This document shows positions 11,958 through 57,369 of a stretch of DNA of 64,000 nt, piece by piece. The first letter of the stretch is position 1; every line of letters begins with the position of its first letter. Made by a program: the position numbers and the translations under genes. This DNA is from Portibacter sp. (GTDB lineage Bacteria; Bacteroidota; Bacteroidia; Chitinophagales; Saprospiraceae), in assembly GCA_040391315.1 (NCBI GenBank), contig JBEBYC010000011.1:46962-110961 (forward strand). The letters are read 5' to 3'. The notes under the pieces were generated by a model. It was not told the DNA's origin and made no database searches. It was given only the letters and a program-made list of their open reading frames with translations.

Positions 11958-14900
11958 CTATTTAATATAGATAAACTTTAAGGTAGCGTTTAGCTTTTGG
12001 TTATGAATATTGATAAAATAAATGCCAGGTGAAACGCCTTCGGGTAAATCAATTGGATATTCCATTGACCATTCAGTACAATGTATATTTCCAGAATGAC
12101 TCAAACGCCCATCTACATTGATGATTTCAAAATTTAGGATTTCACCAGTCAAATTATGCATAGCTAAAACCAATTGGTTTGAAACCGGATTATTAAGGAT
12201 TTTAATTTCCCCTTTATGAGGTGCCTCATCAATTTGTGTTAATACGACTGAACGCATTTTACTATTTTCATACAACTCAGAACGGAAATTAGCATCAAGT
12301 ATAAATCCAGAGGAAGCTTGATATGCATCAGCATGTAATTCAAACAACACATCACCTTTATTTATTGTAACAGGCGCTGCTTGATACATCATGATTTTCG
12401 CTCCATTTTCATGGACAATTTCGTCATGTTCAAAGTATAGATTTCGATTCCAATCAATTTTTGAAATTATTCCATGGTCTTGAAAATTCAATCCCAACTG
12501 TAATGCATCTAAATCTATATCTTCTGAAGCTTTAAAAATCCATTTAACACCTAAATTCGTTATTTCTTTTTCATATTGTATCACAAATGGATTAAGCGGA
12601 TTAGTTCTAGTAGCAATTTGTCCATTTCTAAAATCATCTCCCGATACTGAATAATTAACATCACCTATTTTCACGGCTACAAAATCCGCGTCAGTAATAT
12701 CATTTAATAACGATTCAGTTTTATATTCTGTATCAAAATAAAGCGGTGAATCGGGATTCTTAATACCATTTTTTGGAATCATCACCCATGAAGGTCTATT
12801 ATTGGGAAATTTATCAGTAGCCCCTAAAATCAATTTGCGAATACGAGTAAGATCAGATGCCGTAATGCTTTTAGAATCATCAATATCTGCAGCTATCATT
12901 TGATAAGGACTGGTAAATTTTTCCAATCCTAAAATATGCCTTTGAATAAAAACGATATCCATAGTCGATACTCCATCCAACGGATCTCCATCACGATATC
13001 CATCAATGCTATATGCTTTACCACGTTCTAAATTATCAAATCCGTAATTACCAACTTTGTCTACTATCACCGAACCATCTTTTTCGCTAGTTTTGTAGCG
13101 TACTTCAACACCTTTTACAACTTTATTATCTTCTGTAATAATTTTACCACCTACAAAATGCCTTGTAACAACATCCTGACATACATCGGCATTATCCTGT
13201 AGGATTAATTCCGTCGTACAATAATCCGAAAATCCATTTTGATCCGTCACAGACATTCTTAAATATACAGTATCGGCAATTCCATTTTTGAGATCATTAC
13301 AGTCAAATAGAAGCTTACTACTTTTTTTAACCGGGTCCCATTTTTGCGCTTCGCCTGATAAAAATTCATCTTCAACAGTTTCAACTCCTTCACCTTTGAA
13401 GTAATGCACTTGATTTATTTTGGATATTACAGGATTTGCACGGTCAAAAGTAAATATCAAAGCATTATAATCCGTACAATTATCATAACTGCCATTATCA
13501 AAATCTTTAGCATAAATTTCTATAGCACCGGTTACAGCATCTAGTGATTTTGTCAATGAACTGATACAATAAGGAGTTGGCTTTTTACAATCTTGAACTT
13601 TAAAAATTCTTGTACACACTGTGACATTACCACATTGATCCGATACATTCCATTTAATAGCGTGTATGCCTATTGGCACTTGACCTTCAAAACGATCTGA
13701 GTTGCCCATAAGATCAATCGATCCGTCATGATTAAGATCAACAGTGAATGACCAGATTAAATCCGATTTAGCTGTACATTCGTCATCTGCATCAGCTGTA
13801 AGAACAATTGTAGTCAAACCACAATCCTGAACATACGAACAAAAAACTGTATCCTGACATGAGGTCAGAATAACCGGGCTTTCATAATTACTTAATTTAA
13901 TCGTTTGAATATATTCATAAATACCAGCTTTGGGATTTTTTTCATCAAATTGACACCAATCCATTACTGACCAAGTTCTGAATATCTTTACGCATGCACT
14001 ATCACCTAAATAAAAATTCTGGTCCGTATATGTTGCAGCGACATTGCCACAAGCCGTATTGACGAAAGTAGGTTTTCCTGTAATATCCGGATTTGCATCC
14101 AATATTTTACAACCTTCGCCAGAATAACTAGCAGGCCAATCTATGTCATTAGCTGTAAATGGATTCGGATTTAAAATCGTAATAATCTGTCGACAGGAAT
14201 CTTTATTATTATTGCCATCAATTGCTATAAAAGTACGGTAAATATATCCGGTATGACAATGTAAATCCACCTCATAATGCGACTCAACTATCACGGTACA
14301 ATTATCCTGAGCAAGTCCATCCTTACCAACGAAACCATTATGATAAAAATTATTTATCACGATATCTTTTCTCAATAATGGATTCGTAACCACTGTACCA
14401 AAAGGCGACAAATCCGTCGGATCGAAGTTATCAGAACATTCGAGTGTGATATCAGGAGGACAGATGATCGTAGGTTTTATTTTATCCTCGACATTTACTT
14501 CTACCATACAGGTATTTTTATTTCCAGATTTATCAGTAATTTCAAAAACGACCATTTGAGTAGTTCCGATATCTTCACAGCAAAAATCAATAAAATCTCC
14601 CCATTCAGTGGATTTACCACAGGCAGCGTTCATCCTTCTGACTTTGAAATAATCGATTTCACAATTGTCAGAACTGCCATTATCAAATGAGTATGCAAAT
14701 ACTCGACCTCTACCGGTATTGTCCAATGCGACCTTAGTATGTGCACGACAAACAGGATAAGGAAGCGTTTTATCTTCAACAATTACAGTACTTGAACATT
14801 GGCTGCTATTGCCGCATTCATCCGTAGCAATGTACAATAGAGAATATTTACCTAAAGGCAATTCTTTAAAAAAGAAATTGCCTTGGATATTTATGATTTT

Positions 14901-16301
14901 ATCACTATAATTTAATCCATTTTTATCTTGTAACTGAAAGCTAAGTCCTATATTATTGCAATCAGTAACTTGAATTAAATCAGGTATTAAAATCTGGCCG
15001 GTATTACAAGTATACGGATTTGTTTCCAAACGAATTGTATCGCGACATACTAATTCAGGACCTTTCGTATCTTTAATGTAAATCAGTTGATTATTCGTTC
15101 TACTTTCCGAAGAGCACCAGTCAATGACAAACCAATTTCTAGCTATTTTAAAAGTATTTCCACATTCCTGAAATACGATATCACTATATTGATATTGTAA
15201 GTGTCCACAGTACCCTACTCCCGGAATTCCTGAAGTATCTGGTGATGGATAGCCATTGGCCAAAGTAGGAAACGTATCACCACACTCAAAAAATGGACGT
15301 TCTTTACCATCAAAATTAGCCGGAAAAGTTACCACATTCAGAGGCATACGTTTTACTATAATGGTTTGAATACAATTCGATGTATTGCCACGTTCATCTT
15401 TAGCTTTCCAATTTCGAGTTATGATTTTATCTGCAAGCCCCGTACATTCACCTTTCGTTTCTTTATCCGTAAATTCAAGCGTCACATCAGAGCATTTATC
15501 CCAATCTTTAACAATGTATTTTTGATTTACAACAGTATCCACCCATGCCCCTTTAGGAAACGGAAATCCCACACTATCTGGCAATATAGATGCGTCACAA
15601 AATATAGTATCATTTTTGCAAGCAAATATAGGCGGAAGATAATCTTCTACTAAAAAAGAACCATAACAAAAGTTTGAAGTACATTTATGGCCTAATTTAA
15701 ATGAAATTTCTTTACCTATATGTTTGTTTGTCAATGTATTATCTGGAATAAGTTTGCCATCATTCGTATAAAGTTCAATTGTATAATTAGTAAATGGTGG
15801 CATTGGATTAGACTGAATCATCGTAGCATCCACTTTTTGAGTACAAGATTCATTGAGTGCTATGGTAAAATTACTAGCGCAAAATAAAGGTGGTGCTGTC
15901 TGAAAAGTTACTTTTATTTCATCACTACCCCTTTCTTGTGGCTTTCCAACTGGAACATCAGAAAGTAACATTAAACGATAAAAGCCAAGTGCTATATCAT
16001 TGGATCCAGGAACATATTCAATTTGTTGAGTTTGGGCAGTACTATAGCGAACTGTCTGTAAATTTCCGGGCTGAAAACGACCATCACCAAAAGATATCCA
16101 GTCACCGTCGCTCACGTCACCATTAATTGTAGCTTGCAAATCTTGGATTAATAAGCTACTTCCCAAGCAATCTGTCCTGTCATTTCCAGCAAAAACATAA
16201 ATAGCAGACGGACTCGCTACCATAGTTTGCTCTAGCTGCCTTGCCCAAATGAAGCAGGCCACACTCACAAGCATTAAAAATGGAAAAATAACGTGTCTCA
16301 A
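11958..16301 (-). CDS. Giant T9SS cargo paralogue 1 (1,447 aa): short unique head, Cys-rich HYR-like chassis, dockerin-like and cohesin-like modules, T9SS CTD
   Basis: Uninterrupted 4.3-kb ORF with a TTG start at 16301 and an alternative ATG at 16274. Chassis landmarks include CYGSFLVEDYLPP, ITRNWKAKDERGNTSNCIQTIIV, IARNWFVIDWC, YIATDECGNSSQCSSTVIVEDK, IDFCCEDIG, CVKIFRTWSVMDWC, CKKPTPYC...YAKDFDNGSYDNC and VTDQNGFSDYCTTELILQDN. The tail has DGVSTMDIVFIQRHILG...AADIDDSKSITASDLTRIRKLILG and ends ...ILNNPVSNQLVLAM...GIYFINIHNQKLNATLKFIYIK. Confidence 0.85.
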   Translation of the reverse strand: MRHVIFPFLMLVSVACFIWARQLEQTMVASPSAIYVFAGNDRTDCLGSSLLIQDLQATINGDVSDGDWISFGDGRFQPGNLQTVRYSTAQTQQIEYVPGSNDIALGFYRLMLLSDVPVGKPQERGSDEIKVTFQTAPPLFCASNFTIALNESCTQKVDATMIQSNPMPPFTNYTIELYTNDGKLIPDNTLTNKHIGKEISFKLGHKCTSNFCYGSFLVEDYLPPIFACKNDTIFCDASILPDSVGFPFPKGAWVDTVVNQKYIVKDWDKCSDVTLEFTDKETKGECTGLADKIITRNWKAKDERGNTSNCIQTIIVKRMPLNVVTFPANFDGKERPFFECGDTFPTLANGYPSPDTSGIPGVGYCGHLQYQYSDIVFQECGNTFKIARNWFVIDWCSSESRTNNQLIYIKDTKGPELVCRDTIRLETNPYTCNTGQILIPDLIQVTDCNNIGLSFQLQDKNGLNYSDKIINIQGNFFFKELPLGKYSLLYIATDECGNSSQCSSTVIVEDKTLPYPVCRAHTKVALDNTGRGRVFAYSFDNGSSDNCEIDYFKVRRMNAACGKSTEWGDFIDFCCEDIGTTQMVVFEITDKSGNKNTCMVEVNVEDKIKPTIICPPDITLECSDNFDPTDLSPFGTVVTNPLLRKDIVINNFYHNGFVGKDGLAQDNCTVIVESHYEVDLHCHTGYIYRTFIAIDGNNNKDSCRQIITILNPNPFTANDIDWPASYSGEGCKILDANPDITGKPTFVNTACGNVAATYTDQNFYLGDSACVKIFRTWSVMDWCQFDEKNPKAGIYEYIQTIKLSNYESPVILTSCQDTVFCSYVQDCGLTTIVLTADADDECTAKSDLIWSFTVDLNHDGSIDLMGNSDRFEGQVPIGIHAIKWNVSDQCGNVTVCTRIFKVQDCKKPTPYCISSLTKSLDAVTGAIEIYAKDFDNGSYDNCTDYNALIFTFDRANPVISKINQVHYFKGEGVETVEDEFLSGEAQKWDPVKKSSKLLFDCNDLKNGIADTVYLRMSVTDQNGFSDYCTTELILQDNADVCQDVVTRHFVGGKIITEDNKVVKGVEVRYKTSEKDGSVIVDKVGNYGFDNLERGKAYSIDGYRDGDPLDGVSTMDIVFIQRHILGLEKFTSPYQMIAADIDDSKSITASDLTRIRKLILGATDKFPNNRPSWVMIPKNGIKNPDSPLYFDTEYKTESLLNDITDADFVAVKIGDVNYSVSGDDFRNGQIATRTNPLNPFVIQYEKEITNLGVKWIFKASEDIDLDALQLGLNFQDHGIISKIDWNRNLYFEHDEIVHENGAKIMMYQAAPVTINKGDVLFELHADAYQASSGFILDANFRSELYENSKMRSVVLTQIDEAPHKGEIKILNNPVSNQLVLAMHNLTGEILNFEIINVDGRLSHSGNIHCTEWSMEYPIDLPEGVSPGIYFINIHNQKLNATLKFIYIK
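11961..13181 (-). other. Conserved C-terminal tail cassette of paralogue 1 (CarboxypepD-reg-like, dockerin-like at about 12819-12977, cohesin-like, T9SS CTD)
   Basis: The last 407 aa starting at CQDVVTRHFVGGKIITEDNKVVKGVEV. It is collinear with the tails of the other three paralogues. Confidence 0.7.
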
Positions 16302-19876: not shown

Positions 19877-21271
19877 TTGTACATTATGCACTCAATGGCA
19901 GAAGGCACCAGACGCGAGTTGTATAAAGCCCAGTCCTTTTTACAGTCTTATGTAAAGTCCAATTCTAAAAGCGATTTGAAATCCTATGTAGGTTCGCTTC
20001 AAAAATTGACTGAGCAAATCTACGCAATACGTCAATATGAAAGCGAAAATCTAGCTGTTTTTGATTCGACTAATTTAGTTGAAAGTGAAATTAAACAATT
20101 GGATCATTTTGAAAAATTGATCGATTCTATATTTATGGAATCCAAAAAAATATCCATTGATGTCGCTCCTTATATGATTCATAAAATGGAAATTGAACAA
20201 ATTCCTAACCATGTTAAAGTAGAAATACACCATTTGGAAGACAGCTTGAAAAAAAAAGGATTTTTTAACCGGCTGAAAGATGCGATAACCGGTAAAGTGG
20301 AAGTAAAAACGGATACTATTATCATTAAAACTACCCATGATAGTTAGGTGGATACGACTAAATTAAATTCCGCTATCGATAATTCAATTGAGGCCTTACA
20401 ACAATATTATCTAGACGAACTTCGTAACTTTCAAACGCGTCTCGACTCGCACAATAATCGTATTTATCAAATTTACGACGGACTGATGAATACCGGAAAT
20501 AACCTGCTTGATGTCTATAATACTTCCATTTCTGACTTCAAGGAACGGCTCCAAAATCAATACTCTGAGCAAATTTCTATCAACAACAAGATTCGTAGAA
20601 ATACTATTTTAGGCTTGCTCTTTCTAACTTTCCTAGTACTTATTGTACTGATGTATTATACCCGATTGGCTTTTGATTATTAAAATGACCTTAAAGAAGC
20701 CAATGACAGAATTAACCAACATTTAAATTTTAAAACGAGGGTACTTGGCATGTTGAGCCATGAAATAAGAGCACCTTTAAAAATCATTACTTTATTTATT
20801 AAAAATATTGACAGCCGGACTACCGACAGCAAAATACGTGAATTTCTAAAAACGATAAAATTTACTATTAATTCTATGCTTATTCAAGCGAATCAAATCT
20901 TAGAAATCAGTTCAATAAAGAAATCTGAATTTCAGCTCACTAATTTTAACTTGAAAAACGAGATCGTTTCATTGCTGAAAGCTTTTGAGCCATATATTGA
21001 ATCCGGCAACAATAATTTTCTTTATAATATTCAAATATCGGATGAAATTATCGTTTATTCTGATAGTACAAAAATTCATCAAATATTGACTAATTTATTA
21101 GACAATGCCAATAAGTTTACAGAAAATGGTATCATTGAATTAAAAGCAATCGCATTTGAAACAACATCGAATGAGGTACAACTTAAAGTTTCTATTTTTA
21201 ACGGTCAGAAATGGCGGTTGGTTGACAAGATAGTAATATATAAAATAAGCAAATATGCGCAAGAAGATTGA
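19877..21271 (+). pseudogene. Decayed sensor histidine kinase (two in-frame stops, truncated ATPase domain)
   Basis: The three track ORFs (19877-20347, 20348-20683, 20750-21271) are all in the same frame. They are separated only by TAG (20345-20347) and TAA (20681-20683). Reading through 20684-20749 gives NDLKEANDRINQHLNFKTRVLGMLSHEIRAPL, a perfect DHp H-box context. A TM helix (ILGLLFLTFLVLIVLMYY) precedes it and the N-box (LTNLLDNANKFTENG) follows. After VSIFN the G1/G2 boxes are missing. Confidence 0.7.
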
Positions 21272-27562: not shown

Positions 27563-27617
27563 TGTATGAAAATTTAATTTTGTAAAAAAATTATGTGTTT
27601 TTATATGAGAAAATTGT

Positions 27618-46218: not shown

Positions 46219-49200
46219 TTACTCTACTACAATCATTTTCTTTGTAGCTGTAAAGTCACCGGATTTTAATGTATAATACATTACACCGGAAACCCCCAAT
46301 TCTTGCTTACTAATTAGTATCGTATTTAAACCTTTATGTCCATTCAATTGGAATTGCTTAATTTGCTTACCTAAAACATCATGAATTGACAAGGTAGCGT
46401 CTGCCGCTGCTGGTAAATAATAAGAAATTACAGTCTGAGCAATAAATGGATTCGGTTCATTTTGATAAAGAACAACTGCTTCATTATTTGCATTAGTAAA
46501 TCTCAGATCGACTTTACCAACTTTGAACGCTGCATCATAAGATTCTGACTTCGTTATTTCAGAGTTTAATGACAAGGCTTCTTCTAAGTTTCCAAAAGAT
46601 TTTGCTTTAAATTGCAATGTAAATAATACATCTCCCGCATTGAGTTCGACAGGACTCTTAGCAGCATAACTCATTGTAATTTTACCTTTTTCGTTAAATA
46701 CTCCAACCTGGCTCATATCTAAATTAAATACACCACGGTCAATACTAACCAATTCGAGGTTTTCTATATTCATTGTCAACTGATAACCTATAATACTTTG
46801 ATTGCCTTCACTCGTAAATGGAATTGAAATAAGTTCATCCTTTTCAAATGATTGAGATGCTACATTCATAACAAAAGCATTTGAAGTTCTGGCTTCAGTA
46901 GTAGGCTGTCTTAAATCTAATTCTACACTAGAGTTAACGTCTCCAATCTTAACAGCTACAAAGTCTTGCTTAGACATATTATCATTAATGCGAATATAAT
47001 CATATTGTTCTTTATAAGGCATTACATTAGGCATGCTCATCGATTGATGTTTCACTGGGAATCTCCAGCTATCATTTTTAAATTCATTTTTAACACCTAA
47101 GATGACCCTTCTGATTTCTGTCAAGTCTGATGCAGAAATATTGCCGTCATTATTAGCATCAGAAGCGATAAGTTGGTATGGATCTACAAAAGTCTCTAAG
47201 CCTAAGATATGACGTTGGATCATAACGATATCGATAGTACTTACACCATTTAGATAATCGTCATTTTTGATTACATGAACGTTATAATCAGCTTCTGACT
47301 GAACTTCCATACTGTAATCACCTGCCTTATCTGTAATAAACTGCTTAGGATATTCAGGTAAATTACTTTCGAAAACCACGATAGCATCACTTACGTTATT
47401 TCCGGTAGCTGTGGCCACATGACCTGAAACAATACGATTACCACCACAGCCAATAACTTTAAGTTCTGATTCGCAATAATCTGTATTCCATGCCTCATCC
47501 CATACATTAACGCGTACTGAGAATTCACCACAAGTAGTCCAAACCTTGCCAGAACTTCTCAATCCTGGAATCCACTTTTGTGCTCTTCCTTGATTGTATT
47601 CAGCAAGCGTTGCGTCTACACCTTCCAGCTGACCAGTTCTAGCCTTGAAGTAGTGTTCTACATTCAACTTACTCAAGACAGGATGAATCTCATCAAAAGT
47701 AAAGTACAATTTATTCTGAGGTGAACAATTATCATAAGCACCTCTATCAAAATCTTTAGCCCAGATTTCTACCATCTTAGGATTTGTTTGCATAATTGCA
47801 GTACTCAATTGTACACAATAAGGTGTCGGCGCCTTTTTGTCAACCACCATAACAGTGCTTTCACATTGATCAACATTTCCGCATCCATCCGTAATCTTCC
47901 ACAATATTTTGTGTTGGATATTTTCTGCAGGCAAAGTAAACGCAGGTAATTTAACACTTTCACCGCTTGCTTTTGTTGGTCTAACATAAGATACATAAAC
48001 AATATCATCTAAGATTACACCCTGGTGTTGAGCCTGTAACTGTGCCCATATAGGGTTTGGTTGCCCATTAATAAGCTTAGGTTGTGCGACCCACTGATTA
48101 GCCCATGCTTTATTTACAAAGCTAGAACCTAATCTGTCAACCGTTCCATTAGACCAACCGTCAAAGAATACCTGCCACTTAACCCAACTTTCTTCAGCAC
48201 AGATTAATGAATCTTTAGCATAAGCCTCAAGCACTACGTTTCCTTCACATCCACCATTTGGATTAGCTGGATTCACTACAGCAGGAAACATTTGATCAGC
48301 ACAAGCAACCTCAGGAGAAACTTCATCTTTGAAAGCATAATAATGTACAAACGGGCCTAATTCATCTCCAGAACACCAGCTCTTATATGTATAGGAAACT
48401 TTCCATTTCTTACAAGCGCCATCTTCAAAGAAGAATGTATCAATCTTAAATGTTTCACCTACGATATCACATTGACCATAGTTGACAATTGGTCGTTTTA
48501 TCCTTGAATTACTAGCGTCTCTTACATCATCCGCATTAAATGAACACTTATCCCATTCAGTTACTCCATTATTTTGAGCGAAGGTAACCGTAAATGGAAC
48601 TTTAATATCATTTACTGAAATCTTTTGAGTACATGTGGATTCAACGTTTCCTTTTTTCACTTTGAATGTTCTCGTGATCACACCACTTCCACATGCATCA
48701 AGACTGCCCTGATCAACATAAGAGATCGCAAGATTGCCACATAAGTCTATACTACTTGGGGTACCTGTCATACTCATGTCAACACTGTCTATAGATACCT
48801 CTTTACCGATACTTAAGTTTATGTCCATATCACAAGTTACTGTAACATCTACTGGACAAACGATAACAGGTGCAATTTTATTTTCAACTTGTACTGTTGC
48901 CCACGTTGTATTAAAGTTATCTTTCAGACCATTGATAATCTGATTATCCCCGATGATACCATTCATGTTACCATCATCCCAAACACGAAGTTCTACTACA
49001 TGTTCGCCAAAAACGTCACCAGCTGGAATATCTTCACAACAGAAAGTTACATATTCACCTCCATCCGTATCATTTGCATGGTCGTCAGGATGTAACCAAC
49101 TTACCCCTGGTGAAGCAGATGTCAATCCATTGTGATTGTTGTAAGTGGAGTTATTATTATGGTTATTTGATCCGACATTATAACAAGAACCGCCATCTAA

Positions 49201-52200
49201 ACGTCTCAATTCAAGCTTAACTCTTGTACATTGGTCATAAGAACCATTATCCACTTGCCATGCAAACAATTTAGCGTAACCATTTCCTGTTCCATCGTTG
49301 GAAAGTCCTAAAACAATATTTTGTTTCGCTATTGCGATAGGTGCCGTTGCGTCCACAACAGTTACTTTAAAACTGCATACGGACTCATTAGCACATTCAT
49401 CTTTATAGAAGTACTTGATTGTATGTACACCTTTATAGAAATAGTTACCATAAACATGTAATACTCCTGTTGAATCCTTCTCAGTTATAATTTCACCACC
49501 ACCATAAATCAGATATTTAAATTGCACTTTGTCAGAACAAGCATCAAATATCTGTCCAGGTTGAGGTAATTCAAGATCAACTCTACAAGTCCATGGATCT
49601 ACTGAAACTGTGATATCAGCAGGACAATCAATGACCTTAGGCCCTGATTTGTCTAATACCTTAATAACTTGAATATGTGTTCGTGGATTATCTGCAGATA
49701 TAGGATAACACATATTTCTAACTTTCCAATATCTTAGGATTTCATAACTTCCATTACAAATGTCGTATATCTCGTCTGTGTAATTTAAACTAACCATACA
49801 TAATCCACCGGATTTGTTAACCTGAATACCATTCAATAAAGGCCAGCCAGTATGGTTAGGATGCGTTAACTCAGGATTATTGATGACATCAGCACAATTG
49901 ATCGCCTGGTCAAATTCTATATCCGAAGGATAAACTACATCATCCAGATTTAAAGGTCTGATTGTAATATTTTGAATACACTCTGATTTTCGACCTTCAT
50001 CATCGATAACAGACCATATTCTCTTCACTGTCGCTCTAGGATTATCACAATTTCCAAATGTCGTCCATTCATCTTGATAAGCAATTTTTGCATTTTCTGC
50101 GCAAGATATAAGAACAGCCTCACCTAATAATAGGTGGCCGAGTGTATCTACAGCTTCTATGTCAAAATTACAAGCTACGACAGTATCTCTAGGACATTCC
50201 AAAATTGGAGTTAATTTTTCTTCGATATTAATATATCCCCAACATGAAACAAGGTTACCAGAAAGACAATCACTAATACTTACTTTAAATGTCTTGCCTT
50301 CATCTTCTAATGTAAACAGATTATCATGTGGGAAACCAAATAAATCTTCAATTGTGATACAATAATTATCATAACATCTGTAATTGTTTCCTTCAAGTAT
50401 CATATCAGCATTAACTATGGCCTGACAATCTGACCCTAATGATATATTCAATGCATCATTACAAGCTAACGTCGGATTTTGAGGAATGAATTCATTAACA
50501 GTTACGTTAAAGATACATGTACCAACATTTCCATAAATATCGAATACTTTCATTACGATGTTGTATGAGCCGATTGGCAATCTACTGATATCCGCCAATG
50601 TTCCATCTTCAAAATAATATCTGGTACTGTCAATACCACAATTATCCGTTGCAGGAGGAGTATATAAATCCAAGCTTCCTAAACATTCACCCGGACTAAG
50701 ATTAATAACTCTGTCAGGGCACCCAATTGTAAACATAGGTTCTTCTGTATCAAGTACCGTTACAGTAAATCCACAAGTATTGATATTGCCATATTGGTCA
50801 ATAAGTGTGTATTCAATAACAGTAACACCGACTTTAAAGATTCTCGTTTCTCTTAAACCTTGTAAGTTGATAGTTCCATTTGAATTTAGAATCACTTGAG
50901 TTTCATGTTCAAATTCACCTGTAACATCATTTGTAAATGTATAATCAACCGACACTGTACCAAAACAACAATTGTCTTTTAATATTGGATGTATCCAGCT
51001 GAAAGTAGTATCACATCTACCTGGTGCATTTTGTAATACTACATCACCTTGATCATAAGGTAATTGGTAGAGTATCTGAAGCTCCCAATTTACAAGAACA
51101 CCAGGTACGATACCAGTAGAATATATTTCCAATATCCATTCTCCCTCACCTTCTTCGCCATGGAATGCTTTAAAGGACTCAAGTGGTCTATAAGTGCCAC
51201 CCTGCCCCATTGGATTACATAATGCATTCGTAACACTTGGAGCTGGTACCCAAACAATTGTTTCATCTAGATTAATATCAATATTTGGTTGGTTATTACA
51301 TATACCACTAAACAATTCAATTCTTGTACCAGAAGGGCTACTCAAATAAGCGGTTACTGATCCTGCATTAGGAATTGTAATTTGTAGATTATGAATATTT
51401 ACATCATTTACAATACCTGCAGGCATTGTTATCGTAGACACCAAACAAGAATTAATATCAATATTTGAAGGTACCAATGTATTAATCACTTCAATTGAAT
51501 CGTGTTTGATACAATAAGGTGATTCTAAATCTTTGATTGTGATATTAAAAGTACATTCATCAACGGAAGGTGCATAATTTTGCAAACCTCTTGTTGTACC
51601 ATTTGGTGTCATAGTAGGCAAGCCAGGATTTAAAAACCCAAAACTTCCCGGATCACATGGTGTAGCAGCAATAAAATCAGACTGTAGGTCATGATCGCAT
51701 ACATTTTTACGTAAGATAACATTACCTTTTACTAAATCATTAATTGTTGCTTCGTCAATAACTCGATTTAAGAACGTAAAGCAATATTTGGCAATCTGCC
51801 CTGCAGGAATAGAAGTATTAAACGTATGGGTAAATGTACCTCCTACCGGTATTACGTTCGGATTAGGAATTACCCACATGATTGGATCTGGTGGATAAAT
51901 CGGTGTTGTCCCATATGTAGATTTATTATTTGCAGTTGGCACCATATAGGATTCAATTACGTTGCCATTCTCATCCTTTAATACAAAATTACTACAAGTA
52001 ATATCCATATTAGCAGGGCCAAAATTGGTCACCTCCATACCTGTAATGACACCATCCTGAACGATTTCTGTTATGAGGATCAACGGTTGATCTTCAATCC
52101 GATATTTAACTTGAGAAGTACCTACTGGGAAGAAATCTCCACTTGCATCCTCAAAACCGCATGCGATAACCTTACCATCAGGATCTTTCGTTTCGTATAG

Positions 52201-55200
52201 AATAGTTATATTATCTGGACAATTATCTTCAAATTTTACAGGAGCAATATTATTAACGATTGCACCACATTTTTCAGGATCATTTACCTGAGTCACATCA
52301 TTTGGACAAACAATTGAAGGTGGTGTATGGAAATCATTTACGATAATTTTTAATTCACAATAACTTTGATTACCAACAGTATCAGTTGCTAGATATGATA
52401 AAATAGTCAAACCAACCGGGAACAAGTCTCCAGAATTAAGCCCTGTGGAATCTGCTCTTTCAAGTCTTGAATATAAGCCCATACAATTATCATAAGCCCA
52501 TGGCAATTCAAAATTAACGAACGATGAACACCATCCTTGAGGGGCATCCACTACGATTGGGTCTCTAGGACAATTTTGGAAATCAGGTGCAATCAAATCT
52601 TCTACAGTTATGGTATAACAGAAGACATCCGCACAACCAAAAGGAGTAACCTGGAACGTTGTAACACAAATTTCATAAGCTTTACTTCTTATTGCAGGTG
52701 CAAAGAAGCCAGGAATAACCACTCTACCATCTCTTATGACTACAGAATCTAAATCTTGAACTGGAATTCCGTTGCCATAATGACCACCATCTGCACCAAT
52801 CTCATCAAATCCTGTCGTTGACACAACTAAATCTTTATCATCTAAATTAACCAATACCTGCTTTTCATCTACCCAATTGGCAGGGCAAACCGTGTAATCG
52901 CTAATATCAATATGCAGATCTTGACATGTAACCAAAATCTCTTGTGTATATTTAAATTCACATGGTTCATCACCTATGATGTATGTAAGTGAATATGAAC
53001 CGTCCAACCCATTCGGATCAAACATAAAGAATTCATCTCCTGTAAATGGAATACCGTCAGGGTCAACAAAGGACACACCTTGTCCGATCCACTCTCCGTA
53101 AACATCACCAGGATAAGCTCCTCGTATATCCGTAAGGCTCAACATACCTGCTGGAATCGGTGGATCACCTGTGCCATCCCATGCTGCTCCACCCAACCAT
53201 ACTGGTAACTGGTCACAACACATATATCCCGCACTCCAAACTGGATCTAACTTTTCTACTCTAAATACATCGTGTACCATTCTAAAACAACCGACTAAAG
53301 GACTATCTTCATCATATTGGTTCACCTGTCCATCAATAGACAATACATATGATATTGTAATCCAACCTGTTCCCGTTCCAAGTGTATATACACCATCTTC
53401 TGTTATAGTACCCGGATCATTAGTTGACCCTACATCTGGTAAGAATGCGGATATACCGAATCTTCCTTCAATTCTCGAACCCAAAGTTCCAACATCCTGA
53501 TGCCTGATATTCGTACCATCTGGCTGGGCGATGACTATATAAGGAGAGAAATCATACTGATTCTGGAATGGCTCAAAACATACCTCTGGCACATCCAAAT
53601 CCAGCTTATATCCCTCAAAATAATCCAATACCTGAACTACGCCTTTACAGAAACTCACATTTCCACTTGCGTCGGTCACTCTAAGACGCACAATATGCTG
53701 TCCTTTATCATCACAGTCAAAATCTAATGAAGGTGCATAATCAATACCATTTCTTGATATCTCCAATAGAAGATCTCCAAAACAATTGTCCGTACTTCCT
53801 CCATCTATATATATTGAATCCTGTATGTCCGAAGCATATACAGTTCCTGCGCCTTCGTTATTTAGGTGCAATTGGACAGTCAGACATATCGCGTTGGGTG
53901 CCTGATTATCTTCAACCGTTATTGAGAAATTACAAATTTGCGTTTCAGAATCATCATCATAATCACCGTCACCGTTGATGTCCACCTGCATTGTATAGGT
54001 AATCACAGTCGTTCCAAGCTCAAAAGCATATCCATCTGGAATATTGTGTGTTCCTATATCCGTATCATTGGTTTCCACAACTGTACCAGATACAGGATTT
54101 GTAAATCTGTAATTGATAATACTTGAACAGCCTATTCCCTGATAAGGTGCAAGACCATTGACTACTCTCGAACAGAGATCTACATCTGTTGATATTGTCA
54201 AATCACGCGGACATTCCAATATCGGGTCGCCGGAAGTAACTTCTACGTTAAATGCGCATACTGACGGGATACCATTACAAGATACGGCTTGGTAAGAAAC
54301 AAGATATGTACCTGGTGTAAGGATAGACCCTGGTAGTGGTCCACTTATCTGGTAAATACCAGGCTCAGTAATAGCTGTAAAGCTCGGCGGTAACGTTGTT
54401 CCTGCGAATAATGTCACATCCGTAGTTGGATTTTCTAAATATCCTCTATATGGAATAGCTTGACTGCCTCCACATCCTTCTAACGCAACGGGTATTGACC
54501 AACCCACTGGAATATTACATTCTAATGTCTGCGCAAATATGTACCCGCTCTCATTACAATTAACATAAATAGCAGGTTCGTCATTTATAACTTGAATTTT
54601 TTCTGTCGCATCTACAGAAAATGCTATATTAACATTACAACCAGCAGCGGCAAGAATATCTTCAATAACAGCTCCAACGATAGGAATCGCACCGATAGGT
54701 AATAAGTCAAGCAAGTTTATTCCCTCTATACCCAAATCACCACATACATCAGAAGGAGAATTTACCCATCCACCTACGGCTCTAACTGTAATTGCACCAA
54801 CTCCGCGTACCCGATTAGGTATAGAAAAACTTGTAAATCCGTTACTCGGGAATGGACCATCATCAACCAAATAGTCAAAGGCTCCATCGCCATCTGTATC
54901 TGCCATCACTAAATATCCACCTCCATCACCACCGGCAAGTTGAGATATCAGCCCTAAAACGAATTGCGCTATTGTCTTTTCGCATCCTAAAAGTTTATAT
55001 AAAGCACCTAACGGACGCCAACCAAAAATTTTAAATCCAAAAATCGAACAAATCACATTCATTCCTGGGAATGATTTCAATTTTTTCCCACCCGCTACTT
55101 GACTTGCATCTATTCCAAAAAGTGATACATTAAAATTACCAGTTATCTCGTCCTGATTACACCCTGCAACTCCACCATCAAAATTGATAACTGAGGTTAA

Positions 55201-57369
55201 AACATTGGGTCCTTGAATAGTAAAGAAGCTACATCCAAAATCAAGACTTGGTTGGGTTGAGATTTCACAAACATCCGGATCAAAAGTGTCACATTGAGAT
55301 GGGAATAAATTATCAGCTCCACAATTATACCTATCTCTATAAATAATGTAAGTTCTGCAGAAAGTTTCAGCACAAGGTTCCGTTGGTGGTGCAATCGTTC
55401 CACATGAAGGTGGTGCATTATTTGTTTCTTCTAAGCATATTGTATATCTTACACTTGTAGTTACTTCATCAATATGCGGAATCGCCGGAAATTCAATGAT
55501 AACATTATCTGTGCCATTTCCTGAAATAGAAGTATGAGGATATGTTGGATTATTGGTTGTAACGGAATAAAGGGGATTAGTCCCTGTACTCGTTCTTGTA
55601 ATTGTTAATGTTGTTGGTGATGTAGCACACAGCGGAGAGGCAGGCTGTCCAGCATCAAAATTAAACTGCGGTGCAGGTCTTACTGTAACTTGAAGATTTT
55701 TTGTATCCGTCAACACATTACCACAACTGTCTATAACAGTATATGTCACCTGATGACAAAAACCGTTATTTACAGGTACTTTATTATTAACTATCGTAAC
55801 TCCCGAAATATTAAATGTTCCACCGCCACTATTGTCAGGACCTAACATAATATCCAAGCTAATAGAATCATTTAATCTCGGTGCCCTACAAAATATAGGC
55901 AAATCAACCAATTCAGCAGACAAGGAATTGAACACCTTAAATTGCTTTGAAGAGGACACCCTACACATATTGGAAGCCTGTCTGATCAAATAAAGCTGCA
56001 TAAAAGGGTCATTATCCGCTTCGTTTACTTCACCATCCACGATTCTCAGGTCTCCGCCTGTATTTCCTGTAACATCCTGATAGAAACCATCTGGCAATGT
56101 AACTCCTACCAAAGAGTTGACTTCAGAAAATATTGCATTTGAACCGTTAGTAAATACATTTTCTCCTGGTACAAGACAATTCCTATCTAAGAGCTGAGCT
56201 GGAAAAACTGGAATAGCTGGATACAAAGCTGGCGTTCCACAAGAAGTATTTAAACCAAAATCACCAATGATATCCGGGTCAGGCCCGTCAACATCTACTG
56301 TAAAAGCCGCACTATTTTCGACATAAACTCTTAAATAATATTCACCTGGATCTACTCCTGATGGACACCCTAATCCGTCACAATAAATAAATGAAGGATT
56401 ACCTAAAGTTCCATTGGAAGTATTGCGAAGTGAAGTGGATGATGCTATCCTATAACTTTCTCCTGCTCCCATGGCGGATCCATCTGCATTACCGATGATC
56501 AATGTGACAGCATACGTTCCGTCATTCAAATTGGGTGTTTGGTCGTTATTACATACGCATTCCGTTGAAGTTAAAACCGGATTGATAGCGAAAGCATTAC
56601 TTACTGCAGAATTGGAAGGTGTATTGGTTGAACGAATCCGCAATCTGTAGCCTGCACCACTTGGTACTGACGGTATATTACCTGTTAAAGTTCCATTACT
56701 AACACCTGACAGCGTAGCAACTGTACGAGGATATCCCGAAGCACTAAAATTACCAGTCCTATCACTCAATTCTAAAATAAAATTATTACCAGATATATAA
56801 TTGCAATTCACGGTAAACGGAACAGAAACCGATGAACCGACATTAAGATTAGTTAGCGCAGGATAGGTAGGTGTAATCGTCCTTGATAATACAGTAATAT
56901 TGTTACCATTATCATCAAACGGGATGAAATGGTTCATAGGTGGACTAGTCGATACTACACGTACCCTATAAGTAGTACTTGGAGGTGTTGTCGGAGGTAT
57001 AGTAGCATTTATTGTTCCTGATAGTGCTATTGACTCCAAGGTACCGATAATATTACTGGAATTATTATTGTTAATAAAGTTACCTGACGCATCGCTCAAC
57101 TGTACCCTGAATTCATTTCCCGTTAACATAGGTCCACCACTAGTTACTGTATAACTTACCGTGAAACCAGTACCTGGACAATAACTTACTGGGCCAAAAT
57201 CATGAGTCGTAATCTGAGCCGAAGATTGCTGTACAGATACTGTCAGCATCAGAATAGCCAAAAAAGCCCAACTGAAACCACGATAATTCGTAACGCTTCC
57301 TATTAAACGCCCAATAATGGCTGTGGACTTCTTCGCTGATTTTTCTAAGAGTTTTGTTCTGTTGCTCAT
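46219..57369 (-). CDS. Giant T9SS cargo paralogue 4 (3,716 aa): unique head of about 2,300 aa plus the shared chassis and tail
   Basis: Uninterrupted 11.15-kb ORF with signal peptide ...FSWAFLAILMLTVSVQQSSAQ. The head contains two Ig-like repeats with an (R/I)(V/L)(Q/E)LSDxxGNF core, HYR-like modules (YLATDTVGNQSYCELKIIVND..PP.IVCP), a lamin-tail-like segment and a proprotein-convertase P-domain-like segment. The chassis starts near 50475 with CWGYINIEEKLTP, VKRIWSVIDDEGRKSECIQNITI, ILRYWKVRNMC, YKDECANESVCSFKVTVVD, VTFCCEDI, ITRTFKVKKGNVESTCTQKISV, KKAPTPYC...WAKDFDRGAYDNC and VWDEAWNTDYCESELKVIGC. The tail has a dockerin-like module (about 47095-47262), a cohesin-like module and a CTD (LYQNEPNPFIAQTVISYYL...ATKKMIVVE). 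Confidence 0.85.
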   Translation of the reverse strand: MSNRTKLLEKSAKKSTAIIGRLIGSVTNYRGFSWAFLAILMLTVSVQQSSAQITTHDFGPVSYCPGTGFTVSYTVTSGGPMLTGNEFRVQLSDASGNFINNNNSSNIIGTLESIALSGTINATIPPTTPPSTTYRVRVVSTSPPMNHFIPFDDNGNNITVLSRTITPTYPALTNLNVGSSVSVPFTVNCNYISGNNFILELSDRTGNFSASGYPRTVATLSGVSNGTLTGNIPSVPSGAGYRLRIRSTNTPSNSAVSNAFAINPVLTSTECVCNNDQTPNLNDGTYAVTLIIGNADGSAMGAGESYRIASSTSLRNTSNGTLGNPSFIYCDGLGCPSGVDPGEYYLRVYVENSAAFTVDVDGPDPDIIGDFGLNTSCGTPALYPAIPVFPAQLLDRNCLVPGENVFTNGSNAIFSEVNSLVGVTLPDGFYQDVTGNTGGDLRIVDGEVNEADNDPFMQLYLIRQASNMCRVSSSKQFKVFNSLSAELVDLPIFCRAPRLNDSISLDIMLGPDNSGGGTFNISGVTIVNNKVPVNNGFCHQVTYTVIDSCGNVLTDTKNLQVTVRPAPQFNFDAGQPASPLCATSPTTLTITRTSTGTNPLYSVTTNNPTYPHTSISGNGTDNVIIEFPAIPHIDEVTTSVRYTICLEETNNAPPSCGTIAPPTEPCAETFCRTYIIYRDRYNCGADNLFPSQCDTFDPDVCEISTQPSLDFGCSFFTIQGPNVLTSVINFDGGVAGCNQDEITGNFNVSLFGIDASQVAGGKKLKSFPGMNVICSIFGFKIFGWRPLGALYKLLGCEKTIAQFVLGLISQLAGGDGGGYLVMADTDGDGAFDYLVDDGPFPSNGFTSFSIPNRVRGVGAITVRAVGGWVNSPSDVCGDLGIEGINLLDLLPIGAIPIVGAVIEDILAAAGCNVNIAFSVDATEKIQVINDEPAIYVNCNESGYIFAQTLECNIPVGWSIPVALEGCGGSQAIPYRGYLENPTTDVTLFAGTTLPPSFTAITEPGIYQISGPLPGSILTPGTYLVSYQAVSCNGIPSVCAFNVEVTSGDPILECPRDLTISTDVDLCSRVVNGLAPYQGIGCSSIINYRFTNPVSGTVVETNDTDIGTHNIPDGYAFELGTTVITYTMQVDINGDGDYDDDSETQICNFSITVEDNQAPNAICLTVQLHLNNEGAGTVYASDIQDSIYIDGGSTDNCFGDLLLEISRNGIDYAPSLDFDCDDKGQHIVRLRVTDASGNVSFCKGVVQVLDYFEGYKLDLDVPEVCFEPFQNQYDFSPYIVIAQPDGTNIRHQDVGTLGSRIEGRFGISAFLPDVGSTNDPGTITEDGVYTLGTGTGWITISYVLSIDGQVNQYDEDSPLVGCFRMVHDVFRVEKLDPVWSAGYMCCDQLPVWLGGAAWDGTGDPPIPAGMLSLTDIRGAYPGDVYGEWIGQGVSFVDPDGIPFTGDEFFMFDPNGLDGSYSLTYIIGDEPCEFKYTQEILVTCQDLHIDISDYTVCPANWVDEKQVLVNLDDKDLVVSTTGFDEIGADGGHYGNGIPVQDLDSVVIRDGRVVIPGFFAPAIRSKAYEICVTTFQVTPFGCADVFCYTITVEDLIAPDFQNCPRDPIVVDAPQGWCSSFVNFELPWAYDNCMGLYSRLERADSTGLNSGDLFPVGLTILSYLATDTVGNQSYCELKIIVNDFHTPPSIVCPNDVTQVNDPEKCGAIVNNIAPVKFEDNCPDNITILYETKDPDGKVIACGFEDASGDFFPVGTSQVKYRIEDQPLILITEIVQDGVITGMEVTNFGPANMDITCSNFVLKDENGNVIESYMVPTANNKSTYGTTPIYPPDPIMWVIPNPNVIPVGGTFTHTFNTSIPAGQIAKYCFTFLNRVIDEATINDLVKGNVILRKNVCDHDLQSDFIAATPCDPGSFGFLNPGLPTMTPNGTTRGLQNYAPSVDECTFNITIKDLESPYCIKHDSIEVINTLVPSNIDINSCLVSTITMPAGIVNDVNIHNLQITIPNAGSVTAYLSSPSGTRIELFSGICNNQPNIDINLDETIVWVPAPSVTNALCNPMGQGGTYRPLESFKAFHGEEGEGEWILEIYSTGIVPGVLVNWELQILYQLPYDQGDVVLQNAPGRCDTTFSWIHPILKDNCCFGTVSVDYTFTNDVTGEFEHETQVILNSNGTINLQGLRETRIFKVGVTVIEYTLIDQYGNINTCGFTVTVLDTEEPMFTIGCPDRVINLSPGECLGSLDLYTPPATDNCGIDSTRYYFEDGTLADISRLPIGSYNIVMKVFDIYGNVGTCIFNVTVNEFIPQNPTLACNDALNISLGSDCQAIVNADMILEGNNYRCYDNYCITIEDLFGFPHDNLFTLEDEGKTFKVSISDCLSGNLVSCWGYINIEEKLTPILECPRDTVVACNFDIEAVDTLGHLLLGEAVLISCAENAKIAYQDEWTTFGNCDNPRATVKRIWSVIDDEGRKSECIQNITIRPLNLDDVVYPSDIEFDQAINCADVINNPELTHPNHTGWPLLNGIQVNKSGGLCMVSLNYTDEIYDICNGSYEILRYWKVRNMCYPISADNPRTHIQVIKVLDKSGPKVIDCPADITVSVDPWTCRVDLELPQPGQIFDACSDKVQFKYLIYGGGEIITEKDSTGVLHVYGNYFYKGVHTIKYFYKDECANESVCSFKVTVVDATAPIAIAKQNIVLGLSNDGTGNGYAKLFAWQVDNGSYDQCTRVKLELRRLDGGSCYNVGSNNHNNNSTYNNHNGLTSASPGVSWLHPDDHANDTDGGEYVTFCCEDIPAGDVFGEHVVELRVWDDGNMNGIIGDNQIINGLKDNFNTTWATVQVENKIAPVIVCPVDVTVTCDMDINLSIGKEVSIDSVDMSMTGTPSSIDLCGNLAISYVDQGSLDACGSGVITRTFKVKKGNVESTCTQKISVNDIKVPFTVTFAQNNGVTEWDKCSFNADDVRDASNSRIKRPIVNYGQCDIVGETFKIDTFFFEDGACKKWKVSYTYKSWCSGDELGPFVHYYAFKDEVSPEVACADQMFPAVVNPANPNGGCEGNVVLEAYAKDSLICAEESWVKWQVFFDGWSNGTVDRLGSSFVNKAWANQWVAQPKLINGQPNPIWAQLQAQHQGVILDDIVYVSYVRPTKASGESVKLPAFTLPAENIQHKILWKITDGCGNVDQCESTVMVVDKKAPTPYCVQLSTAIMQTNPKMVEIWAKDFDRGAYDNCSPQNKLYFTFDEIHPVLSKLNVEHYFKARTGQLEGVDATLAEYNQGRAQKWIPGLRSSGKVWTTCGEFSVRVNVWDEAWNTDYCESELKVIGCGGNRIVSGHVATATGNNVSDAIVVFESNLPEYPKQFITDKAGDYSMEVQSEADYNVHVIKNDDYLNGVSTIDIVMIQRHILGLETFVDPYQLIASDANNDGNISASDLTEIRRVILGVKNEFKNDSWRFPVKHQSMSMPNVMPYKEQYDYIRINDNMSKQDFVAVKIGDVNSSVELDLRQPTTEARTSNAFVMNVASQSFEKDELISIPFTSEGNQSIIGYQLTMNIENLELVSIDRGVFNLDMSQVGVFNEKGKITMSYAAKSPVELNAGDVLFTLQFKAKSFGNLEEALSLNSEITKSESYDAAFKVGKVDLRFTNANNEAVVLYQNEPNPFIAQTVISYYLPAAADATLSIHDVLGKQIKQFQLNGHKGLNTILISKQELGVSGVMYYTLKSGDFTATKKMIVVE
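46222..47448 (-). other. Conserved C-terminal tail cassette of paralogue 4
   Basis: The last 409 aa from CGGNRIVSGHVATATGNNVSDAIVVF. Dockerin-like: LNGVSTIDIVMIQRHILGLETFVDPYQLIASDANNDGNISASDLTEIRRVILG. Cohesin-like: FEKDELISIPFTSEGNQSIIGYQLTMNIENLELVSI...GDVLFTLQFKAK. Confidence 0.7.
51068..51447 (-). other. Proprotein-convertase P-domain-like module inside the head of the 3,716-aa protein
   Basis: CLVSTITMPAGIVNDVNIHNLQITIPNAGSVTAYLSSPSGTRIELFSG...GTYRPLESFKAFHGEEGEGEWILEIYS...VNWELQILY. This fits the P-domain pattern (V.v.I.H....DL.i.L.SP.GT...L...........G.y.P...L..f.G....G.W.L.v.D......G.l..W.L.i). Confidence 0.6.

Follow-up and report, generated by a model that had tools for sequence, protein, structure and literature searches.

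The four very large open reading frames (ORFs) A, B, C and D on the minus strand of the analysed stretch of Portibacter sp. DNA (contig JBEBYC010000011.1; 64,000 nucleotides with a low G+C content of about 35%; hereafter, the window) encode paralogous proteins that share one collinear C-terminal region of approximately 1,300 amino acids (aa), here termed the chassis. Its parts follow the same order in each protein. An immunoglobulin (Ig)-like domain, D1, precedes a duplicated unit of four Ig-like domains (D2–D5/D6–D9); next come a beta-sandwich, a dockerin and a module with the cohesin fold, and the protein ends in a type A C-terminal domain of the type IX secretion system (T9SS). It is highly probable that A–D are T9SS-exported surface or extracellular multi-Ig proteins, and the preferred reading, to which a probability of roughly 0.6 is assigned, is that each forms a stalk displaying a distal adhesive tip. 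The family that they represent is large, real and undescribed and has a well-defined architecture; its kind, the T9SS-secreted multi-Ig surface adhesin, is already known. The features that rise above the routine are the duplicated nine-domain stalk, the dockerin and cohesin in one chain, and the tip alleles of D. The four genes are as follows:

11958..16301, minus strand: paralogue A, 1,447 aa; signal peptide, 137-aa head and chassis
23111..27562, minus strand: paralogue B, 1,483 aa from the probable start Met36; signal peptide and chassis, without a head
27667..32703, minus strand: paralogue C, 1,678 aa from Met21; head of about 350 aa and chassis
46219..57369, minus strand: paralogue D, 3,716 aa; head of about 2,300 aa and chassis

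Chassis collinearity and the Ig-like stalk

Pairwise BLASTP comparison revealed a single dominant collinear diagonal for each pair of paralogues, accompanied by weaker off-diagonal matches. The diagonal comprised 1,263 columns for A and B (31% identity, E-value = 4e-155), 1,160 columns for A and C (34%, 5e-179) and 1,227 columns for B and C (37%, 0), and A, B and C each matched D in two collinear blocks with identities of 25% and 33% (E-values from 1e-33 to 8e-77). All landmark motifs that had been picked out in an earlier reading of the letters alone (the sequence-only reading) were found in the four-way MAFFT alignment with their order kept, and the derived chassis starts (aa 138 in A, 85 in B, 375 in C and 2300 in D) agree within a few codons with the boundaries which that reading had placed at 15890, 27430, 31648 and 50475. 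There are 31 invariant Cys residues in A–D and about 30 across 72 aligned family members. The collinear, Cys-rich chassis is confirmed by these comparisons as real and far beyond chance.

Collinearity had been proposed as the test of whether the shared motifs merely reflect scattered HYR repeats in unrelated T9SS proteins, that is, a generic resemblance. The Ig domains are indeed HYR-like, with weak matches to PF02494 and PF23237, and the off-diagonal BLAST matches would also be expected under such an explanation. However, each pair gave one dominant diagonal of more than 1,150 columns with E-values down to 0, the homology is position-specific across hundreds of genomes (positions 231–1522 of the chassis hidden Markov model, HMM), and the off-diagonal signal arises because a four-domain unit is duplicated; the probability of generic resemblance is consequently negligible. 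Whole-protein HYR (PF02494) scores were 83.4 bits for D, with three clear domains in its head, and 27.6 and 30.8 bits for A and B, respectively, without a single passing stretch; C matched only HYR_4C at 21.8 bits (cut-off 27). Judged from these scores, the chassis Ig domains are best described as divergent HYR-like domains, several of which, as well as the three in the D head, end in the HYR-type motif D..GN...C...V.V.D. HYR is a single-domain definition and misses the nine-domain order, the duplication and the tail.

AlphaFold2 modelling of aa 366–1290 of C (mean predicted local distance difference test (pLDDT) 85, predicted template modelling score (pTM) 0.42) yielded an all-beta structure of nine beta-sandwich domains, D1–D9, whose positions in the paralogues are given below together with one insertion:

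13185..15890, minus strand: A, Ig-like region D1–D9, aa 138–1039 (domain map transferred by alignment from the AlphaFold2 model of C)
24380..27415, minus strand: B, Ig-like region D1–D9, aa 85–1096 in ORF numbering (alignment)
28939..31641, minus strand: C, Ig-like region D1–D9, aa 375–1275 (AlphaFold2 model, hhalign and Foldseek)
47440..50472, minus strand: D, Ig-like region D1–D9, aa 2300–3310 (alignment)
26618..27103, minus strand: B, insertion of about 165 aa between D1 and the D2 core (alignment; no Pfam match)

Alignment of D2–D5 with D6–D9 using hhalign gave a probability of 100% (E-value = 2e-51), and the single-domain pairs D2~D6, D3~D7, D4~D8 and D5~D9 each gave 98–99%, which shows that a four-domain unit underwent a single, ancient duplication. 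Thus, the chassis has a fixed order of nine domains rather than a variable run of HYR repeats. All chassis cysteines are located in the Ig region, the tail of A–D being free of Cys, and the roughly 30 invariant residues probably staple the Ig rod by disulfide bonds. In D9, an insertion of about 40 aa common to A (~13,190–13,580) and D (~47,440–47,830) is missing from B and C, suggesting that A and D are sister lineages.

Foldseek comparison of the Ig region of C with the PDB retrieved gp210, the neck of GhpA from Aureispira, contactins, cadherins, extenders of RTX adhesins and S-layer proteins, all with template modelling (TM) scores of 0.1–0.28; any string of Ig domains would yield a similar list. 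The list nevertheless bears on the idea that A–D constitute a grappling hook similar to that of Aureispira or a gliding device of the SprB type. The neck and base of GhpA were among the top matches (9flp, E-value = 1e-15; 9fly), and one family member was found in an 'uncultured Aureispira' metagenome-assembled genome (MAG; L038). GhpA comes from the same bacterial class and, like A–D, is T9SS cargo with a long run of disulfide-linked Ig-like domains and, as is proposed here for A–D, an N-terminal distal adhesive module. However, GhpA has 5,898 aa and 52 Ig-like repeats, forms heptamers and is encoded next to PorP/PorE homologues, which lie downstream (bioRxiv 10.1101/2024.01.29.577165; PDB 9flp, 9fly, 9flw), whereas A–D combine nine non-equivalent Ig domains in a fixed order with a dockerin, a cohesin and a type A C-terminal domain and have no PorP/PorE homologues encoded next to them. 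The chassis profile gave no match to GhpA at E ≤ 1 when compared with all PDB chains, GhpA fragments included, and the TM scores to GhpA (0.15–0.28) were as generic as those to cadherins or contactins. SprB of Flavobacterium johnsoniae resembles A–D in being a large T9SS-dependent surface protein with beta-rich repeats and presumed distal binding; it differs in its PF13573 repeats, type B C-terminal domain and SprF/PorP partner. Neither SprB repeats (PF13573) nor the type B domain (TIGR04131/CHU_C) was found in A–D; both are present in multi-cohesin neighbours of the family at other loci. The likeness to SprB and GhpA, to which the sequence-only reading had pointed, is thereby reduced to an analogy, and a device of either type is very improbable.

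It should be noted that the full ORFs of B and C extend further upstream (23111–27667, 1,518 aa, and 27667–32763, 1,698 aa, respectively), the internal Met36 (position 27562) and Met21 (position 32703) being the more plausible starts; from Met21, C is identical to database protein P0001. In the SRR23005545 and SRR23005543 strains (L101 and L104), C was called as 1,653 aa versus 1,678 aa in the window, which may represent a variant of head length or start site. The signal peptides of A–D, read by eye, consist of a basic n-region, a hydrophobic h-region and A/G-x-A/G followed by Q. In B (27562–27667), C (from 32703 downstream) and D (from 57369 downstream), a basic stretch of 25–40 aa precedes the hydrophobic core, and these long N-termini are reminiscent of the extended signal peptides that other very large secreted proteins carry.

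The dockerin–cohesin tail and the T9SS domain

The tail of C (aa 1268–1698) was modelled by AlphaFold2 (pLDDT 92, pTM 0.75) as a beta-sandwich followed by three helices, from which a short beta linker leads to a large jelly-roll and then to the C-terminal domain. The corresponding modules of the four paralogues are as follows:

12801..12980, minus strand: A, dockerin-like module, aa 1108–1167 (sub-HMM E-value 7e-32; Dockerin_1 20.3 bits)
23981..24160, minus strand: B, dockerin-like module (sub-HMM E-value 6e-37; Dockerin_1 18.8 bits)
28549..28728, minus strand: C, dockerin-like module, aa 1346–1405 (three AlphaFold2 helices; match to the ScaB dockerin, E-value 3e-4; Dockerin_1 17.3 bits)
47074..47253, minus strand: D, dockerin module (Pfam Dockerin_1 25.1 bits, cut-off 22.9)
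28729..28917, minus strand: C, CarboxypepD_reg-like beta-sandwich preceding the dockerin
12252..12605, minus strand: A, cohesin-like module, aa 1233–1350, the most divergent of the four (sub-HMM E-value 9e-11)
23378..23785, minus strand: B, cohesin module (Pfam Cohesin 26.1 bits, cut-off 24.1)
27934..28353, minus strand: C, cohesin module, aa 1471–1610 (Pfam Cohesin 32.1 bits; Foldseek)
46480..46884, minus strand: D, cohesin-like module (sub-HMM E-value 2e-29)
11961..12227, minus strand: A, type A T9SS C-terminal domain, aa 1359–1447 (TIGR04183 27.2 bits)
23114..23347, minus strand: B, type A T9SS C-terminal domain (TIGR04183 42.1 bits)
27670..27903, minus strand: C, type A T9SS C-terminal domain (TIGR04183 31.7 bits)
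46222..46455, minus strand: D, type A T9SS C-terminal domain (TIGR04183 33.5 bits)

The Dockerin_1 (PF00404) cut-off was exceeded in D, with A, B and C scoring below it; the identity of 66% among the four shows that they represent one module type. The second calcium loop is canonical (D-x-N-x-S-x-x-x-[ST]-x-x-D, here D-I-N-N-S-x-x-I-[ST]-x-S-D), and the first is atypical, lacking the ligand at position 5. Cohesin (PF00963) was above the gathering score in B and C, and A and D matched the family-specific sub-HMM only. The jelly-roll of C aligned with solved type I and II cohesins in Foldseek with TM scores of 0.56–0.68 (identity 17–21%), and the search of the family profile against PDB sequences that yielded the ScaB dockerin match also yielded the ScaB cohesin (E-value = 4e-5).

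The C-terminal domain (TIGR04183/PF18962) occupies the last 75–90 residues of A, B, C and D alike and scored above the cut-off of 23 bits in each, in agreement with the sequence-only reading; by the sequence features tested, A–D are therefore T9SS type A cargo. The window also contains a gene for a PorV2-type outer-membrane protein, so the host encodes T9SS machinery, and a GldC-like gene lies just beyond the window edge; core genes such as sprA and porU are located outside the sequence covered:

8575..9660, minus strand: PorV2-type T9SS outer-membrane protein (NF052325 418.8 bits, cut-off 325)

Known type A cargo, such as the gingipains of Porphyromonas gingivalis, shares with A–D the signal peptide, the TIGR04183 domain and a beta-sandwich just before it, and the T9SS component PorV2 is encoded in the window; A–D differ in having no catalytic domain and in possessing a 1,300-aa stalk found in no described cargo family. 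Curated libraries matched the chassis in pieces only (the C-terminal domain, weak HYR/HYR_4C, CarboxypepD_reg, Dockerin_1 and Cohesin). A separate T9SS cargo protein of 1,273 aa (4487–8308), a reprolysin-like M12B metalloprotease with nine PKD domains, adjoins PorV2 and is unrelated to the chassis family.

Comparison of the modules showed that the dockerin is by far the most conserved, a point that, like the Ig duplication and the dockerin–cohesin pair at the base, was absent from the sequence-only reading. Identity among A–D was 66% for the dockerin and 22–37% for all other modules, the cohesin being lowest (22.5%); similarly, column entropy over the 72 members was lowest in the dockerin (1.15 bits) and highest in the cohesin (2.69 bits). 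Gene conversion was considered as the cause and rejected: identical residues were encoded by identical codons in 46% of cases versus 54% elsewhere, and no exact nucleotide match between paralogues exceeded 20 nt. It follows from the absence of a codon-level excess and of long exact matches that the paralogues are old and that the dockerin is under purifying selection.

The closest analogues of the tail are cellulosomal scaffoldins, namely ScaB of Acetivibrio cellulolyticus and the X-Doc dyad of CipA from C. thermocellum, with which it shares the cohesin fold, the canonical second calcium loop, the beta-sandwich before the dockerin and the presence of both partners in one polypeptide. A–D differ in phylum and secretion route, in lacking carbohydrate-active enzymes or binding modules, in having one dockerin followed by one cohesin, and in their atypical first calcium loop. 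Non-cellulosomal cohesin- and dockerin-like modules were reportedly catalogued by Peer et al. in 2009.

Heads and strain polymorphism of D

As had been stated in the sequence-only reading, the heads of A (~137 aa), C (~350 aa) and D (~2,300 aa) are unrelated: no significant BLASTP similarity was found between them, the sole exception to dissimilarity being the HYR-type domains of the D head, which weakly resemble chassis domains. This statement should be qualified for B, whose insertion of ~165 aa follows D1. The heads are composed as follows:

15891..16301, minus strand: A head, aa 1–137 including the signal peptide (no Pfam match)
31642..32703, minus strand: C head, PKD-like modules (weak PKD_6 match)
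52975..57369, minus strand: D distal head, aa 1 to ~1465, hypervariable between strains (strain comparison)
50473..52974, minus strand: D proximal head, three HYR domains, a proprotein-convertase P-domain-like module and further Ig-like domains (Pfam)

The head of A is 48% and 39% identical to the heads of its orthologues (L026 and L008, respectively), and that of C is kept in at least 10 orthologous loci; thus, hypervariability is not a general property of the heads. Up to residue 1,150, D gave only piecemeal matches to other T9SS cargo, with 5–37% coverage, so that its head is a mosaic of shared beta modules. Pfam scanning revealed no toxin, enzyme or lectin family in any head of A–D. Since there is neither a toxin or enzyme domain nor an immunity-like neighbour, the polymorphic-toxin logic suggested in the sequence-only reading fails; the neighbours are housekeeping genes, and the variable part is N-terminal, not C-terminal.

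Among 104 complete members of the family, about 45% have no more than 65 aa before D1, i.e., a signal peptide alone, and in the remainder this region reaches more than 1,775 aa; over the loci as a whole, head length varies from 0 to more than 3,000 aa. Consequently, the chassis must be able to work alone. Comparison of a headless protein (L032) with one carrying a 1,116-aa head (L036), whose chassis are 60% identical, shows that heads are gained or lost between close relatives. The abundance of headless members also agrees with an explanation in which the proteins form a structural or protective surface coat or sheath, the usually headless chassis being the functional unit and the heads incidental; high copy number and frequent tandem arrays fit such a coat, a dockerin and cohesin in one chain could drive its self-assembly, and the S-layer proteins Sap and EA1 were among the Foldseek matches. 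The Foldseek list is, however, the generic one described above, and the division into more than 30 subfamilies (<38% identity), together with the hypervariable tip of D, fits recognition better than a uniform lattice, so that a coat appears improbable.

The polymorphism of D was revealed by comparison with public assemblies of the same species as the window. The conspecific contigs were 99.66–100% identical to the window over positions 1–52,544 and 57,750–64,000, a span that contains A and B in full, the C-terminus of C, and the part of D from aa 1610 onwards. In the SRR23005547 strain, the region ~53,000–57,700 had an identity of only ~71% at the DNA level and 69.5% at the protein level, versus 99.7% in the flanks; this diverged block corresponds to aa 1–1,460 of D and the last ~95 codons of the upstream 317-aa ORF. 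Both alleles of D are intact ORFs (3,716 and 3,720 aa) in independent assemblies. In this strain pair, synonymous sites were saturated over aa 1–1465 (proportion of synonymous differences, pS, 0.65–0.75), and synonymous (dS) and nonsynonymous (dN) substitutions per site were distributed along the protein as follows:

D aa 1–260: synonymous sites saturated, dN 0.57
D aa 261–700: synonymous sites saturated, dN 0.28
D aa 701–1100: synonymous sites saturated, dN 0.19
D aa 1101–1465: synonymous sites saturated, dN 0.10
D aa 1610–3716: dS 0.018, dN 0.0018

On these values, the distal head of D is an anciently diverged allele exchanged by recombination, and the rise of divergence towards the N-terminus is as expected for an exposed, selected tip on a conserved stalk. 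The idea of a variable tip on a conserved stalk, already put forward in the sequence-only reading, is thus upheld for D, whose tip is ~70% identical between strains with a dS of only 0.018 in the rest, and by head gain and loss in relatives; it does not extend to A and C, whose heads are conserved in orthologues, or to A and B between strains. D therefore offers a natural case of deeply diverged within-species alleles at an exposed tip and points to a surface under selection. RTX/Bap-type adhesins of Aeromonas and Marinomonas (PDB 6xi1 and 6xi3, both among the Foldseek matches) are similar in combining a cell-proximal anchor, a rigid Ig-like stalk and strain-variable distal modules; they are exported by the type I secretion system, anchored at the N-terminus and built from near-identical Ca2+-stabilised repeats, whereas A–D have the reversed polarity and non-identical Cys-rich domains. 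The 317-aa membrane ORF upstream of D on the same strand (57412–58365), which has no family match, may be functionally tied to the D tip.

Family distribution, gene neighbourhoods and proposed mode of action

A search with the chassis of C among word-indexed candidates identified 395 proteins, all of them encoded in MAGs of Saprospiraceae, Lewinellaceae or Chitinophagales. When a single genome was scanned for each species, at least 444 relatives were found, the best 80 loci of which were almost all from Saprospiraceae. In these 80 loci, 157 ORFs with products of 1,253 to 4,588 aa matched the chassis profile, always at the C-terminus, and two to four tandem copies on the same strand were common. 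With the tail alone, 4,424 cluster representatives (clusters at 50% identity) were matched at E ≤ 1e-30, the match invariably lying at the very C-terminal end. Some of these proteins, such as P0127 and P0122, have no Ig chassis and contain tandem [sandwich–dockerin–linker(–cohesin)] units, so the tail behaves as an independent, repeatable supermodule; tandem units with little or no Ig chassis were likewise observed in P0147, P0148 and P0154. Clustering divided 118 complete members into more than 30 subfamilies (identity below ~38%). Each of A, B and C had orthologues in other genomes to which it was closer than to the other two (for B, 53–59% identity to L001 and L026), and D was a singleton. 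The public names of the family are limited to 'T9SS type A sorting domain-containing protein' and 'hypothetical', and there is no curated full-length family, which bears out the earlier remark that the chassis is not a characterised family. No paper was found on this family or on cohesin–dockerin pairs with T9SS cargo in Saprospiraceae.

The family is among the largest sets of secreted proteins in Saprospiraceae, with several copies per genome, and it has had no name, model or structure; with the architecture described above, its members can now be defined and annotated as a family. Activated sludge, freshwater and marine surfaces harbour abundant Saprospiraceae, some of which attach to or prey on other bacteria; the means by which they make contact have been described mainly for Aureispira.

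The preferred reading, a stalk with a distal adhesive tip, can be set out as follows. The signal peptide and the type A C-terminal domain suggest a route by Sec across the inner membrane and then by the T9SS across the outer membrane. The C-terminal end would stay on or close to the cell surface; its retention would be covalent after cleavage of the C-terminal domain, as in P. gingivalis, where PorU attaches cargo to A-LPS, or else non-covalent. The beta-sandwich, Ca-type dockerin, linker and cohesin fold would constitute the cell-proximal base, and the nine Ig domains a disulfide-stapled rod of ~35–40 nm; the predicted fibre length is about 45 nm for B and more than 100 nm for D. The N-terminus would then be distal: in B and in some 45% of the family it would present a bare D1, and in the other members an added head of adhesin-type beta modules. 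Such heads are gained, lost and exchanged over evolutionary time, and the outer 1,460 aa of D would form an exposed tip facing a target or an enemy. The proteins may serve to adhere to, or make contact with, particles and other cells, which fits the epiphytic habit of some Saprospiraceae on other bacteria (PMC9304909). The conserved stalk with its free N-terminus could also serve as a T9SS display scaffold. The dockerin could mediate Ca-dependent docking to cohesins on neighbouring family members or on PorP-anchored multi-cohesin proteins. A functional cohesin–dockerin interaction in trans is proposed only tentatively; if true, it would mean that such pairing organises a Bacteroidota surface, extending a mechanism known almost only from Gram-positive cellulosomes.

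The gene neighbourhoods of the family bear on this last step. Clustering of 745 flanking ORFs from the 80 loci revealed no universal neighbour; the recurring ones were a quinone oxidoreductase 3' of B-type genes (7 loci) and a PorP/scaffoldin pair (8–9 loci). At the latter, which belong to several subfamilies (L020, L022, L024, L033, L044, L060, L063 and L066), the chassis gene is followed by a gene for a protein with three to seven Pfam-significant cohesins, SprB repeats and a type B (CHU_C) domain, and then by PorP/SprF. Examples of the multi-cohesin, scaffoldin-like proteins are as follows:

L020:14199-18345: multi-cohesin scaffoldin-like protein
L063:1123-7635: multi-cohesin scaffoldin-like protein
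L066:14039-18637: multi-cohesin scaffoldin-like protein

Minimal proteins of ~260 aa, in which nothing but a single cohesin separates the signal peptide from a type A T9SS C-terminal domain, were also observed (L063:294-1079 and P0121) and are possible surface docking sites.

Such neighbours are consistent with a different fate of the proteins, in which PorU cuts off the type A C-terminal domain and the released cargo is recaptured, and held non-covalently, by cohesin–dockerin docking in a cellulosome-like manner, the partners being type B/PorP-anchored multi-cohesin scaffoldins, and the cohesin of each captured protein recruits a further dockerin, producing chains or a lattice. The status of the dockerin as the most conserved module, the location of the multi-cohesin and PorP/SprF genes directly 3' of family members at the eight named loci, the existence of the small cohesin proteins and the tandem tail units of P0127 and P0122 all speak for recapture, and the beta-sandwich–dockerin dyad may be seen as analogous to the clostridial X-Doc. 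On the other hand, a scaffoldin neighbour was found in only ~10% of the sampled loci and neither in the window nor in its 10-kb flanks, scaffoldin cohesins are ~35% identical between loci compared with 57% for dockerins, and the dockerin could be occupied in cis in a tail predicted to be compact with good confidence. The conservation of the scaffoldin cohesins is intermediate between that of the dockerins and that of the family's own cohesins (27%) and decides nothing, and the word-indexed search for homologues of the multi-cohesin scaffoldins, with one weak match, was uninformative about their distribution. Recapture is accordingly regarded as unlikely, if the most serious of the alternatives. 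A still broader proposal is more speculative and somewhat less likely, namely that Saprospiraceae run a non-cellulosomal cohesin–dockerin assembly on the T9SS, in which thousands of stalks would plug an X-Doc-like dockerin into scaffoldins, cohesin-only proteins or each other's cohesins. This would be a modular display of exchangeable heads, some of which, such as the D tip, would be ancient recombining alleles kept by frequency-dependent selection from prey, hosts or phages.

Several observations weigh against the stalk-and-tip reading itself or against parts of it. Covalent attachment after cleavage of the C-terminal domain is established for P. gingivalis alone, and type A cargo is not always anchored, several such proteins being released in Flavobacterium; the covalent C-terminal anchoring assumed in the sequence-only reading, an extrapolation from P. 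gingivalis, is accordingly not adopted here as the only option. The heads contain no ligand-binding family recognisable by the Pfam scan, and A, B and the C-terminus of C are free of strain polymorphism (99.76–100% identity; 99.8% for A and B). No multi-cohesin scaffold or PorP gene is present in the window or within 10 kb of it, and the rarity of scaffoldin neighbours at the sampled loci has been noted above. The family's own cohesin is its least conserved module, a poor fit with the cohesins of all paralogues binding one conserved dockerin. When ~1.3 Mb of DNA flanking related loci and the window were scanned, the dockerin variant proved to be confined to the chassis family, so there is no sign of a wider dockerin-bearing proteome. 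The compact AlphaFold2 tail suggests that the dockerin could be engaged within its own chain. Finally, the Bacteroidota O-glycosylation motif D[ST][AILVMT] was not enriched relative to shuffled sequences.

In the window and the 10 kb beyond it on either side, no PorP/PorE pair, scaffoldin, immunity-like gene or further paralogue was found. The neighbours are housekeeping genes, including rpe, gamma-glutamyltransferase, PNPase, S15, cobalamin adenosyltransferase, RarA, CorA, an aminotransferase and a hemerythrin/cupredoxin cluster. The window's arrangement of a C-type gene, a B-type gene and a quinone oxidoreductase gene, in that order, recurs in synteny at seven loci. Regulators of the LuxR/GerE type recur near chassis genes (L020, L022, L033, L054, L066 and L074), and in the window, a 404-aa GerE-domain protein (59145–60359) is encoded divergently upstream of the D operon. 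The short ORFs at 19877–21271, including a HisKA fragment, are the same in all strains of the species; at this position, the related contig L097 carries an intact histidine kinase, a response regulator and a GT2 glycosyltransferase, so the window copy looks like a decayed two-component system. The cluster at 35782–38000, which comprises ScdA/hemerythrin, cupredoxin, DUF488 and another hemerythrin, has the appearance of a nitrosative or oxidative stress island and bears no relation to the chassis family; according to the annotation of L089, a globin and an Rrf2 regulator are encoded close to it.

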